This document shows, piece by piece, positions 1,462-16,061 of a stretch of DNA of 16,061 nt. Under the pieces are notes generated by a model that worked only from the letters and a program-made list of their open reading frames with translations, was not told the DNA's origin and ran no database searches. Position numbers and translations under genes: made by a program. The DNA is taken from the IMG/VR virus record IMGVR_UViG_2660238318_000012; one strand, given 5' to 3'. The DNA comes from a virus. Its lineage: Duplodnaviria; Heunggongvirae; Uroviricota; Caudoviricetes. The first letter of the stretch is position 1. Every line of letters starts with the position of its first letter.

Positions 1462-1579
1462 ATATGTCCTTTTACCACTACATCAAGTCATTGATTCGAT
1501 CAAACAATTTTCATTGAAAAAGTGCCAAAAATCGCAAATTGACTACACCATTAACTACACCGTTCGGTGCACTGTATGA

Positions 1580-1605
1580 AACAACGTGGAACAAATAGAC
1601 ACAAG
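1580..1605 (+). repeat. Phased 10-bp AACAA repeat array (site A) at island left end; shares 15-mer AACAACGTGGAACAA with site B
   Basis: AACAA at 1580, 1590 and CACAA at 1600, exactly 10 bp apart; the 15-mer at 1580-1594 is identical to 9056-9070. Confidence 0.45.
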
Positions 1606-1973
1606 AAATATACAGGCGGGTAATCTTTCCAGGGGGAAGCGCACCAATTCATGAGGGGCGTTAATGTCGATATGGGGATCCCCATAACGGGGCTACCGGA
1701 TTTTTTTTCCGGTTAACCTTTAATCAGGCTGGTGGGTTTTACATACCCTTGATCACCGTAATGATGATCCAGATGTGCACCTTTTCCACCAATGGCGGAA
1801 AAGCTCCAACCGTAACGATGATCGCTATGGTTGCCTCGATGGTCTGCGTGGTCATTATGACCGTTCAGCCAGTGACCTTAATCAGAATTTTTCGCTAAAA
1901 AATGACGTTGGCCACGTCATCCGGAAAGCACAAAATCACGTCGATTTTTAATGAACGGTTAAACCGTCTTTTT

Positions 1974-2008
1974 GTCACGGTGTGTCACTGGTTGTCACTC
2001 TCCGTCAC
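1974..2008 (+). repeat. Four GTCAC repeats at exact 10-bp phasing; candidate arm-type recombinase or excisionase binding array
   Basis: GTCAC at 1974, 1984, 1994, 2004; adjacent palindromes ACGGTT-A-AACCGT (1955-1967) and ATGACGT-N5-ACGTCAT (1902-1920). Confidence 0.4.
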
Positions 2009-2257
2009 GATTGAGGTGGTGGTCATTCTGCCCGACCGCGCATCTTTGCGCTATCGGGAATATCAAACAGTTACCTCGCCGACTTCCTCAAATTGAGGTT
2101 TCCGAAAATATCAGAGCGGGTTAGCGATTAAGCTGACGAGTAATTAAACTGCGAAAATTTCGTAGTTTCTGAATATATTCCGGCCTGCTGGTTAACAGTC
2201 CTCAGATGTGAGGGATGTAGCCAGCGCAATTTTGCGCTTTGCTTTAATCTCAGTGAG

Positions 2258-2539
2258 TTACCGCCGTAACCGCTCCGGCTTCTTCCAGTGGTACGTGATT
2301 TTCTCCTTCTCCCGATACAGTTCAACGCGGCGATTGTAGGCCAGCATTTCCAGAACGCGGATCCGTATGTCGCGCATATCCGCATCATTAAGCTGGATAC
2401 CATCACGGCGCATCACCTCAGCAACAACACGCGCATAATTTTCGGCTGTCACGCTGTCCGGCTGCGTGGTCTGTTCGTCAGCCTGCTGGCTGATTCCAGA
2501 GACGCGGCGGATTAATCGCAGTATTTCGGCTTCTGTCAT
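2258..2539 (-). CDS. Hypothetical protein, 93 aa, last gene of the packaging operon
   Basis: ORF with GAGG Shine-Dalgarno about 9 nt upstream of ATG, starting 13 nt after terL stop; charged, protein-like composition; no recognisable domain. Confidence 0.55.
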   Translation of the reverse strand: MTEAEILRLIRRVSGISQQADEQTTQPDSVTAENYARVVAEVMRRDGIQLNDADMRDIRIRVLEMLAYNRRVELYREKEKITYHWKKPERLRR

Positions 2540-2552
2540 GCTGCTGACCTCA

Positions 2553-14268: not shown

Positions 14269-14457
14269 TTAATGAACTGCCTTGCAGCTATCCTTCCAGG
14301 CCAGAACCTCGGATAAAGACCAGCCAACGGAACGACCGCCAAGTTTACGACGTGATGGGAATTGTCCGGCCTTTTCCAGGCGGTAGCGGCATGAGCGGCT
14401 AAGGCCTGTTAGCTTTTCGCATTCTTTTTCACGTATAAACCGATCAGTGCTTAACAC
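14269..14457 (-). CDS. alpA: AlpA-family phage transcriptional regulator, 62 aa
   Basis: EKLTGLSRSCRYRLEKAGQFPSRRKLGGRSVGWSLSEVLAWK matches the AlpA/Xis-like winged-helix signature; GTG start with GGGGG RBS. Confidence 0.9.
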   Translation of the reverse strand: MLSTDRFIREKECEKLTGLSRSCRYRLEKAGQFPSRRKLGGRSVGWSLSEVLAWKDSCKAVH

Positions 14458-14617
14458 TATTGCCCCCTTTCGTTTCTTAAAGAGTTATTTCGTGTTCTAT
14501 TGCGTTGGGATGTGTCTGATTGTGTCAGGATGATTCAGAGTTGGCAAATGTTGAGGCCGTATGGTTTACAGAAAGAGGAATAATCAGGATAAAATCCTTT
14601 AAATTCATGTTAATACA

Positions 14618-14650
14618 AAGGCATAAAATATTGTTTCATGCCTTTTTTCT
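14618..14650 (+). terminator. Terminator-like hairpin with T6 tract in the int-alpA intergenic region
   Basis: AAGGCAT/ATGCCTT stem with 13-nt loop followed by TTTTTT on the plus strand; a weaker U tract on the minus strand, so it may act in both directions. Confidence 0.35.
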
Positions 14651-14739
14651 CGCTATTTAAAGAGTGATTCGCTAGTGTATAAAAAATCAGTAACACATTA
14701 AAAATCAGCTACTTATAAATCTGTACACTTTTTCACCTC

Positions 14740-14790
14740 TTGTTCGTAGTTGTTCCGCATTGTTGCTCATTGTTGCACGTTGTATCTGTT
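14740..14790 (-). repeat. Five TTGTT repeats at exact 10-bp phasing (AACAA on the gene strand), site C, just downstream of int
   Basis: TTGTT at 14740, 14750, 14760, 14770 and TTGTA at 14780. Confidence 0.45.
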
Positions 14791-14831
14791 CGCATATCCA
14801 GTATGCGCATACTGAAAAAACACGAAAAAAA

Positions 14832-16061
14832 TTATTTTCTTCTGGCTACTGGTAGCGTGGTTACGTTTTCATGTGTTCCCGCCAGTATCCCTAACCGCTC
14901 CGTCCACATATCCAGCGCATTGCGTTTAGCATCCAGATAACGGGAATGATTATAAACTCGCTGCATTCCTGGCATCTGGTGGCCTGTAAGCTGCTCCACG
15001 ACGTGAGGATCCACGCCTAAATCGTTCAGCATCGTTGTAAAGGTGCGCCGGATGTCATGTAGTGACCAGTGAGGGTGATTTAGCCTCCTGTGCGCTAATC
15101 TGCCGTACTGCGACACGCTTGTTTCCTGTTTCACTTCCCCCAGCAATAAGCCCGTGTGCCTGTTCTGCTCCACCAGCTGCGTGACGAACGGCAGTATTGC
15201 TTCCGGTATGGGCCGGAATATTGCCACCTTCGTTTTGCTGTGTTCTTTCGGCACGGTCCAGAGCATTTCGGTAAAATCCCACTCGCTGATCTCCGATAAC
15301 CTCAGTTCTACCGTCCGGCATCCGAACACAATCAGGAGGCGGATTAACGCGATGTAGTAGGGGGAGAATATTTTTTTGTCCAGTGCCTGCAATAATTCGC
15401 CCAGTTCTTTGGTGCTTAAGACACGCTCGCTTATATCCGGTTTTTTCCCAACGTCCGCCACACTCATATCATCAAGAACGTTGCTGATTGCATAGCGCCG
15501 CCTCCGGCAGAACTTAAGCGCCTGTTTGCACGTCTGTAGCAAGAATCCGGCAGTAACAGGCGTTCGCTTTGCCACCTGGTCAAAACAGGCCAGCCAGTGC
15601 CGTAGCTCGCATTTATCCAGCGGCATAGCACCAATGTGCTGTATTACGTGATTATTAAGGCGCTTTTTCAGGGCGGCATAATCCACGCGGTTTTCCTTTG
15701 CGTACGACTCAAGCCAGTAGGTGAGCGCATCGCCAACCGTTACCGGCTTTAACGCTTCCTGTACGGTGTAATTAAGCTCATGACGTGGATTTTTCCCCTC
15801 TGCCAGCCATGCGCGACACTGGGCGGCTTTTTCCCTGGCTGATTTCAGGCTCAGATCAGGATAATTTCCCAGCTTAATGCGTTCCGGTGGTGCCCCCCTT
15901 CCCGTTCCGGCCCTGTAAGTGAAATACCAGGTTAAAAGGCCACTGGTTGAATGCCTGACGCTCAGGTTTCCACCGTCATTAAGAAAGGCTGTTTTTTGGG
16001 CGGGTGTGCCGTTGATTTTCCTCAGCTGTGTATCGCTCAGTTTGTTAAGTGCTCTGCTCAT
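14832..16061 (-). CDS. int: P4-type tyrosine integrase, 409 aa; ATG on the last three bases of the window
   Basis: N-terminal P4-integrase arm-binding-like domain and catalytic region with HDIRRTF (H-x-x-R) and C-terminal tyrosine in RVYNHSRY. Confidence 0.95.
   Translation of the reverse strand: MSRALNKLSDTQLRKINGTPAQKTAFLNDGGNLSVRHSTSGLLTWYFTYRAGTGRGAPPERIKLGNYPDLSLKSAREKAAQCRAWLAEGKNPRHELNYTVQEALKPVTVGDALTYWLESYAKENRVDYAALKKRLNNHVIQHIGAMPLDKCELRHWLACFDQVAKRTPVTAGFLLQTCKQALKFCRRRRYAISNVLDDMSVADVGKKPDISERVLSTKELGELLQALDKKIFSPYYIALIRLLIVFGCRTVELRLSEISEWDFTEMLWTVPKEHSKTKVAIFRPIPEAILPFVTQLVEQNRHTGLLLGEVKQETSVSQYGRLAHRRLNHPHWSLHDIRRTFTTMLNDLGVDPHVVEQLTGHQMPGMQRVYNHSRYLDAKRNALDMWTERLGILAGTHENVTTLPVARRK

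Follow-up and report, generated by a model that had tools for sequence, protein, structure and literature searches.

A probably decaying capsid-forming phage-inducible chromosomal island of the EcCIEDL933 lineage next to phoQ in Shigella flexneri

The DNA analysed here (IMG/VR virus record IMGVR_UViG_2660238318_000012; 16,061 nucleotides, hereafter the window) opens with phoQ (1-1461, plus strand), and beyond the phoQ stop codon consists of a single block of genes, all on the minus strand, which extends to its end (Table 1). An earlier note, drawn up from the letters alone, had read the block as a capsid-forming phage-inducible chromosomal island (cf-PICI) inserted beside phoQ. Searches with the hidden Markov models (HMMs) of Pfam and NCBIfam confirmed that all the gene families it named lie in this co-oriented block, on the minus strand, and insertion has occurred at the phoQ 3' end. 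Gene content, protein sequences and site of insertion identify the element as a cf-PICI of the EcCIEDL933 lineage, equipped with a P4-type integrase and residing at the stop codon of phoQ. In this copy, the capsid gene is interrupted by a nonsense codon, and terS has lost its start.

Table 1. Coordinates of the features of the island and of its left junction (positions in the window; ORF, open reading frame; aa, amino acids)
Feature	Position	Strand	Evidence or remark
left attachment (att) core AAATATGTCC	1460-1469		overlaps phoQ stop TAA (1459-1461)
two ACTACACC repeats, 12 nt apart	1538-1561	+	second pair between int ATG and right core
93-aa ORF downstream of terL	2258-2539	-	phrog_1561, 1.5e-55, unknown function
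terL, 553 aa, intact	2553-4214	-	TerL_nuclease 6.6e-51, TerL_ATPase 1e-25
terS, P27 family	4198-4509	-	Terminase_4 1.6e-23; TIGR01558 match starts at profile position 13
deletion junction CCCCGCC	4528-4534	-	alignment with RM6927 and L007
conserved block GGGGTGGGGGGCGTTTTCAGGAC, putative cos cleavage region	4543-4565	-	retained, 15 nt upstream of deletion
60-aa ORF between HNH and terS	4580-4762	-	100% identical to EDL933-type island ORF
HNH endonuclease, packaging accessory	4746-5186	-	PF01844 1.8e-08
gp6-like head-tail connector	5186-5482	-	Phage_connect_1 1e-11; TIGR01560 1.7e-26
head closure/head completion protein (adaptor)	5479-5817	-	Phage_HCP 1.7e-23; TIGR01563 4.2e-15
portal, holding 87 masked N	5814-7069	-	Phage_portal 9.7e-62 and 2.4e-13 on two pieces
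S78 prohead serine protease, HK97 family	7071-7643	-	Peptidase_S78 7e-48; TIGR01543 4.1e-53
HK97-type major capsid gene, 385 codons	7683-8840	-	two pieces, 3.7e-29 and 9.7e-24
accessory ORFs between origin and capsid (92, 101, 53 and 74 aa)	9141-10258	-	PHROG 'unknown function'
iteron cluster, putative replication origin	10306-10533		ten GGTAGAYAG-like sites, both orientations
P4-family primase/D5-type helicase, 582 aa	10547-12295	-	D5_N 1.1e-13, DUF5906, Pox_D5
DUF4222 gene	12292-12591	-	PF13973 2.2e-24
77-aa small early ORF	12597-12830	-	PHROG match
73-aa small early ORF	13045-13266	-	PHROG match
Icd-like 66-aa ORF	13256-13456	-	RefSeq homologue name: 'host cell division inhibitor Icd-like protein'
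called 248-aa ORF downstream of alpA	13465-14211	-	gene finders; RefSeq in relatives
alpA, PICI induction regulator	14269-14457	-	Phage_AlpA 5e-18
int, P4-type tyrosine integrase, 409 aa	14832-16061	-	Arm-DNA-bind_3 5.2e-18, Phage_integrase 1.1e-16

The cf-PICIs have been defined as elements of 10-18 kb, which include an integrase, regulation and replication modules, and an eight-gene packaging module, and lack lytic and tail genes (He et al., 10.1101/2025.02.11.637232). The int, alpA and primase genes are recognized by HMMs, an iteron cluster is present, and the eight packaging genes follow one another in order on the minus strand, the capsid gene being interrupted and terS truncated at the 5' end. 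The two att cores are 14,729 bp apart. No island ORF matched tail, lysis or CI-type repressor families in Pfam or PHROG; the absence of tail and lysis genes, already remarked in the earlier note, is thus borne out for an element bounded by phoQ and roxA. Gene content, gene order, the 14.7-kb size and the lack of tail and lysis genes all support the classification as cf-PICI. The order of the genes had also been pointed out as unusual. It differs indeed from that of HK97, but capsid-protease-portal-connectors-hnh-terS-terL is the published defining order, and hence a known hallmark, of Proteobacterial cf-PICIs.

Other types of elements share parts of this repertoire. Classical Gram-negative PICIs (EcCICFT073, EcCIED1a) have in common with the island the int-alpA-replication module, and induction by helper phage through AlpA, but hijack the capsids of the helper, and have no capsid, portal, connectors or terL of their own. 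Portal and connectors are forbidden components for PICI in SatelliteFinder, and a classical PICI was rejected because the island has its own capsid, portal, connectors and terL. Satellite P4 shares the P4-type integrase, the primase C-terminal domain (TIGR01613), an Icd-like gene and the dependence on a helper. However, neither sid nor psu nor delta was found in the Pfam and PHROG scans, and a P4-like satellite was discarded because capsid-remodelling genes are missing, and the island has its own capsid, portal and terminase. HK97-like cos phages of the HNH type share the HK97-fold capsid, the SxGxxAD cleavage motif, portal, S78 protease, P27-type TerS, TerL and HNH. They differ in gene order, in having tail, lysis and immunity genes, and in not being confined to a genome of ~15 kb; EcCIEDL933 heads are T=4, those of HK97-like phages T=7 (He et al., 10.1101/2025.02.11.637232). 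An intact temperate prophage was rejected, as no tail, lysis or immunity module is found between the att cores, which chromosomal genes flank on either side.

A related possibility is that the element is what remains of an HK97-like temperate prophage that has lost tail, lysis and immunity genes, and is not a satellite by descent. Head and packaging proteins do fall into HK97-type families, and Shigella genomes are rich in decayed prophages. Against this, the same ~15-kb architecture, precisely delimited by its att cores, is shared by thousands of assemblies and by 56 complete Escherichia coli genomes (at least 80% of the window is found in 56 of the 5,426 complete genomes), the packaging genes are not in HK97 order, and the left half of the element (int-alpA-DUF4222-primase-iterons) is a module of PICI/P4 type. 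Among phage records, none has the packaging module at >80% identity, the sole related small record being vB_KppS-Ant, a 16.5-kb cf-PICI-like element obtained from induced particles. Since a sibling element is moreover an experimentally proven satellite, descent from a prophage is barely credible, and the island is best regarded as a cf-PICI.

The boundaries of the island could be set by comparison with related loci (denoted by L and a number). The phoQ-roxA spacer of E. coli K-12 is an empty site, which reads gaataaatatgCCCatacttcacg. By aligning it with both island junctions, the crossover core was delimited to AAATATG(T/C)CC, approximately 10 bp. The window agrees with the K-12 empty site as far as the core, and L004 and L010, at their roxA-side junction, agree with that site from the core onward. 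The island thus starts at the core at 1460-1469, and not at position 1500 as first proposed, and ends about 172-181 nt past the window, which stops at the int ATG. It is there, at the roxA-side junction of near-identical loci, that the second copy of the core was recovered, a search to the right of int for att sites having been recommended in the earlier note. L010 and the window are 99.98% identical along the entire island, and in L010 the two AAATATGTCC cores are separated by 14,729 bp. Beyond int, near-identical loci directly continue into roxA, pepT and potABCD; the two findings that the earlier note had named as refuting its reading, contiguous tail or lysis genes and a lack of homology to capsid and terminase families, were thus not made, HMM matches to these families being strong. 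No tRNA was found in the window as integration target.

The phoQ-stop site is occupied by the same island family in every locus read, K-12 serving as the empty reference. The exact integrase protein is encoded in 12,435 assembly blocks, and in the loci read roxA always adjoins. Copies of ACTACACC are found in pairs close to either end. The 20.8-kb L010 locus has four of them, two per island end, where 0.36 are expected, and none of 100 shuffled sequences reached this number. They are probably arm-type binding sites of Int. Integration regenerates the stop codon of phoQ (1459-1469; K-12 locus L009, 2241-2317). The co-oriented roxA gene, which in K-12 lies 75 bp downstream of phoQ, is now separated from it by 14.7 kb of oppositely transcribed DNA, and either roxA expression or the phoQ 3' end could be altered.

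Two genes of the packaging module are damaged. Codon 276 of the capsid gene is TGA (8013-8015); RM6927, L005 and the capsid structure deposited as PDB 9GYI have TGG (Trp276) at this position. Recoding of the TGA triplet, by selenocysteine or programmed readthrough, was considered and rejected, as relatives simply have TGG. The second lesion is a deletion. Alignment with RM6927, L007 and L016 revealed that 97 bp are missing between two CCCCGCC repeats, and with them the terS ATG, the first nine codons, 70 bp of upstream DNA and the ribosome-binding region. The sole start left is a GTG 15 codons into the gene, not preceded by an evident ribosome-binding site; terS genes of relatives encode 118 aa. 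The earlier note had spoken of a full head and cos-packaging set, able to assemble its own small capsids. All the families are indeed detected, but given the capsid stop and the terS deletion this copy can probably not form heads.

Both lesions are real and inherited. The exact 275-aa capsid fragment is found in 3,556 assembly blocks, and the stop codon is therefore inherited, and not a sequencing error. Region 7685-15684 of the window is 100% identical to the chromosome of Shigella flexneri SFBU1023 (CP182556.1), which was retrieved by an exact 70-nt search, and has the same TGA in the capsid gene. The split capsid and the short terS, at the same distance from the 60-aa ORF, were seen in all six loci inspected. 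Close relatives have kept an intact capsid gene (L006 and L007) and, in L007, an intact terS region. The portal gene poses a separate problem. Positions 6106-6192 are 87 N, where L006, L007, L010, L012 and L014 have 43 nt between the same flanks. The run is thus 44 nt longer than in relatives, and the two halves of the gene are out of frame as written. Either the N denote a mask that did not preserve length, or a 44-nt insertion has frameshifted the portal, which in L010 is intact and 403 aa long. In L012 (CP026810.1; 5719-6012 and 14582-16242), terL is split, and a fragment of an IS1 transposase resides in the early region; this suggests further decay. As phoP is split in the same assembly, part of the indels in it may have arisen during assembly.

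The large diffusion of a defective allele may hint at domestication. According to this view, the truncated capsid, the portal, HNH or the terminase would poison the assembly or packaging of incoming HK97-like cos phages of the HNH type in S. flexneri, or the insertion would have rewired phoPQ-roxA expression. The defective allele is very widespread, most of the other genes are intact, and the island replaces the 75-bp spacer between two genes co-oriented in K-12. However, PADLOC identified no defence system among the accessory ORFs, some strains seem to be further damaged (IS1 and a split terL in L012, where phoP is split too), and neutral pseudogenes which persist are typical of Shigella. Domestication is therefore held to be very improbable, and a decaying copy transmitted vertically is the most likely condition of the island, to judge from its lesions.

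EcCIEDL933 from E. coli O157:H7 is the prototype cf-PICI (Alqurainy et al., bioRxiv 10.1101/2022.09.08.507074; He et al., 10.1101/2025.02.11.637232), and 9GYI is taken as the structure of its capsid. Reading the stop as Trp, the window capsid is identical to 9GYI at 380 of 385 residues (~98.7%). The capsid shared by L005 and L016 is 100% identical to it, and has S93 (STGVPAD), D257, K290, D295, E319 and R345 at the positions reported for EcCIEDL933 (He et al., 10.1101/2025.02.11.637232). L016 is E. coli strain 122, a cattle isolate with effectors of enterohaemorrhagic E. coli encoded nearby, and hosts the element at the same phoQ/roxA site. Taking L016 as representative of the EcCIEDL933 type, the attachment site and the order of the packaging genes are the same, and Int (100%), AlpA (98.4%), protease (97.9%), portal (~97%), head closure (96.4%), connector (96.9%), HNH (99.3%), the 60-aa ORF (100%), terS over its retained part (100%) and terL (98.6%) are identical or nearly so. 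The near identity of the packaging proteins, the same int and the same att site place the island in the EcCIEDL933 lineage. The 93-aa ORF that follows terL has a counterpart of 93.5% identity at the equivalent position of the EDL933-type island. The window differs from EcCIEDL933 in the stop at W276, in the loss of 97 bp at the terS 5' end and in the host, S. flexneri. Moreover, the replication module has been swapped. The window encodes the 582-aa D5_N/DUF5906 primase, L016 a 710-aa DUF927 replicase, and only the N-terminal 225 aa of the former align with the latter, at 53% identity. In contrast to L016, what is left of ssb and perC is a fusion ORF of 53 aa.

The swapped module is common among siblings, such as RM6927. 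The cf-PICIs of RM6927, CE10 and THO-008 reside at phoQ; those of O103:H2 strains lie inside tqsA, and carry a different int allele. The complete genomes that match best align with 87-89% of the window, at an identity of 95-96%. Siblings share the primase type and have intact capsid and terS genes, and vary in their accessory ORFs. The novelty implied by the earlier note is not confirmed, the island being a close sibling of an element characterised both structurally and experimentally; by family, prototype lineage, site and integrase it is, on the sequence comparisons made, a known entity. Nor are such islands usually left unannotated, as the note held; RefSeq annotates every gene in relatives, IMG/VR holds ~14-kb entries of the family, and 969 cfPICI have been listed with SatelliteFinder, Type A elements occurring in 13% of Enterobacteriaceae genomes.

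How an intact relative propagates can be outlined from the published life cycle; gene identities, att sites, the two lesions and their inheritance are instead what was observed in the present locus. A helper prophage activates alpA, a gene required for induction and transfer of EcCIEDL933. The island is then excised, and replicates from the iteron origin with its own primase-helicase. Small T=4 heads of HK97 fold are built by the products of the late operon, the S78 protease cutting the capsid protein before Ser93. HNH, TerS and TerL cut cos and package the ~15-kb genome, the head is closed by adaptor and connector, and heads without tails obtain these from a siphophage such as HK106. EcCIEDL933 heads measure ~47.5 nm, and take tails from phages such as HK106 with a specificity dictated by adaptor and connector (He et al., 10.1101/2025.02.11.637232). 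Since adaptor and connector of the window are 96-97% identical to those of the EDL933 type, HK106-like tail specificity is the best guess for the intact ancestor of the island.

The consequences of the lesions may be gauged from mutants of the prototype. In EcCIEDL933 (where the capsid gene is numbered 1786), mutation of each gene of the packaging module abolished transfer, with the exception of hypothetical gene 1792, the mutation of which severely reduced it. The latter is, judging by position only, probably the homologue of the 60-aa ORF. Transfer was also lost with single substitutions of K290 or E319, with R345D and with removal of the connector loop; substitution of D295 (D295K) cost 2 logs, and that of D257 4 logs (He et al., 10.1101/2025.02.11.637232). 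D257 and the loop (227-248) precede codon 276, and K290, D295, E319 and R345 lie beyond codon 275. The truncated capsid lacks residues 276-385, so that these four residues are gone. In this copy int, alpA, origin, primase and most head genes are still intact. It is quite likely that the island is a decaying satellite, which may perhaps still excise and replicate, but makes no heads and packages no DNA.

Several observations weigh against this conclusion. Loss of function is deduced from the letters of the DNA, and the equation of L016 and 9GYI with EcCIEDL933 rests on residue numbering and on the four chains per entry. If a related cf-PICI resides in the same cell, it could supply in trans what is defective here, and the 87-N run hides part of the portal. 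The remaining points can be turned into a full alternative, that is, that the cf-PICI is functional, reads through a leaky or suppressed TGA, makes TerS from an internal GTG, and forms small capsids that receive helper tails. No other gene is damaged, and identity to the genes of the functional prototype is 96-100%. The Terminase_4 Pfam domain of terS is complete, some gene callers assume a start at GTG 4509 or at a CTG, and the conserved cos-like block is retained. As the original codon was Trp and tRNA-Trp reads UGA at low level, readthrough would restore the wild-type residue, and hence the wild-type protein. Yet a T=4 head requires ~235 capsid subunits, and readthrough in the percent range would severely cut the yield; terS has neither a Shine-Dalgarno sequence nor its native start, and the 70 bp between cos and terS have gone; capsid and terS mutants of the prototype are not transferred at all. 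A functional island is thus judged unlikely, and the decaying satellite is preferred.

In HNH-dependent cos phages such as HK97 the cos site is flanked by the HNH gene and terS. The record of vB_KppS-Ant, linear and 16.5 kb long, ends right after GGGGTGGGGGAGGTTTTCAGGAC, and begins again 22 nt ahead of terS. The homologue of GGGGTGGGGGAGGTTTTCAGGAC in this island family is the conserved GGGGTGGGGGGCGTTTTCAGGAC, which probably is the cos region, if the ends of the vB_KppS-Ant record correspond to physical termini. The deletion would then have stripped cos of its terS-side flank, where binding sites for TerS are expected. Mapping cos by the ends of IMG/VR contigs was attempted on 30 loci carrying the conserved block, and abandoned; nearly all are prophage predictions from isolate genomes, and contig ends are hence uninformative on physical termini. 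vB_KppS-Ant (L017, LR881103.1, 'Escherichia phage') was deposited as a phage obtained by inducing a prophage, yet has a cf-PICI layout, with terS-terL followed by int and by primase, capsid, protease, portal, adaptors and HNH. The 2.3-kb gene found after its terL is annotated as 'tail length tape measure protein', and is probably a mis-annotated accessory gene.

Shigella is a genus known for gene decay. Detectors based on gene content, and cursory readers, would score the locus as a complete cf-PICI, though at the nucleotide level it is pseudogenised, a condition common to thousands of Shigella assemblies. Censuses that rely on the presence of marker genes will consequently overcount mobile satellites in Shigella, and this allele should be avoided, or repaired, when a Shigella cf-PICI is chosen for transfer experiments. 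The value of the locus as a discovery is small, since family, mechanism, capsid structure and distribution have been published, and the island closely copies the prototype, whose chromosomal site it shares.

The iteron origin proposed beside the P4-family primase is substantiated by counts. Allowing one mismatch, GGTAGAYAG has 13 matches in the window, 10 of which crowd directly past the primase stop. By chance 3.1 would be expected in the entire window, and none of 200 shuffled sequences reached 13. The primase scores 110.5 bits with the NCBIfam model TIGR01613, above the cutoff of 108.7.

The ORF of 248 aa called downstream of alpA has no match in Pfam, PHROG or PADLOC. When compared to L016, mismatches are spread over the three codon positions (46/55/62, against 5/2/58 for terL), and several indels that separate it from the EDL933-type copy are not divisible by three. 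Some 330 nt directly after alpA are near-invariant and rich in GC hairpins, and the remainder is divergent and interrupted by indels. Region 13465-14211 is, on these grounds, probably non-coding or regulatory, and not a protein gene. Just upstream of the Icd-like start at 13456, a GC-rich hairpin followed by TTTGCTTTTTG is found on the plus strand, antisense to the island (~13490-13527). Its stem is conserved and its loop variable between the window and L016, and no Rfam family matches it; it could be the terminator of an antisense RNA running over the icd-like 5' end. A scan of the whole window at Rfam gathering thresholds gave no match, and an E-value scan of 13150-14900 for immunity RNAs of C4/CI type near the Icd-like gene gave hits at chance level only (best E 0.25).

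Among the accessory ORFs, the 53-aa one (9507-9668, minus strand) opens with 25 aa that correspond to the beginning of the SSB gene in L016, and at its C-terminus matches the last part of PerC (Pfam, 1.1e-4). It is therefore the remnant of an SSB-N/PerC-C fusion, formed by an internal deletion that took most of ssb and perC. The fusion also occurs in L006 and L007, which have an intact capsid, and is hence older than the Shigella lesions. Finally, about 780 bp poor in ORFs extend between the left core and the last ORF. This end region hosts four GTCAC motifs at exact 10-nt spacing (TTGTCACGGTGTGTCACTGGTTGTCACTCTCCGTCAC, 1972-2008), which look like a protein-binding array, and a 38-codon ORF (1739-1855, minus strand) for a very hydrophobic peptide (MTTQTIEATIAIIVTVGAFPPLVEKVHIWIIITVIKGM), which may act in the membrane or as a toxin-like product, or be there by chance.

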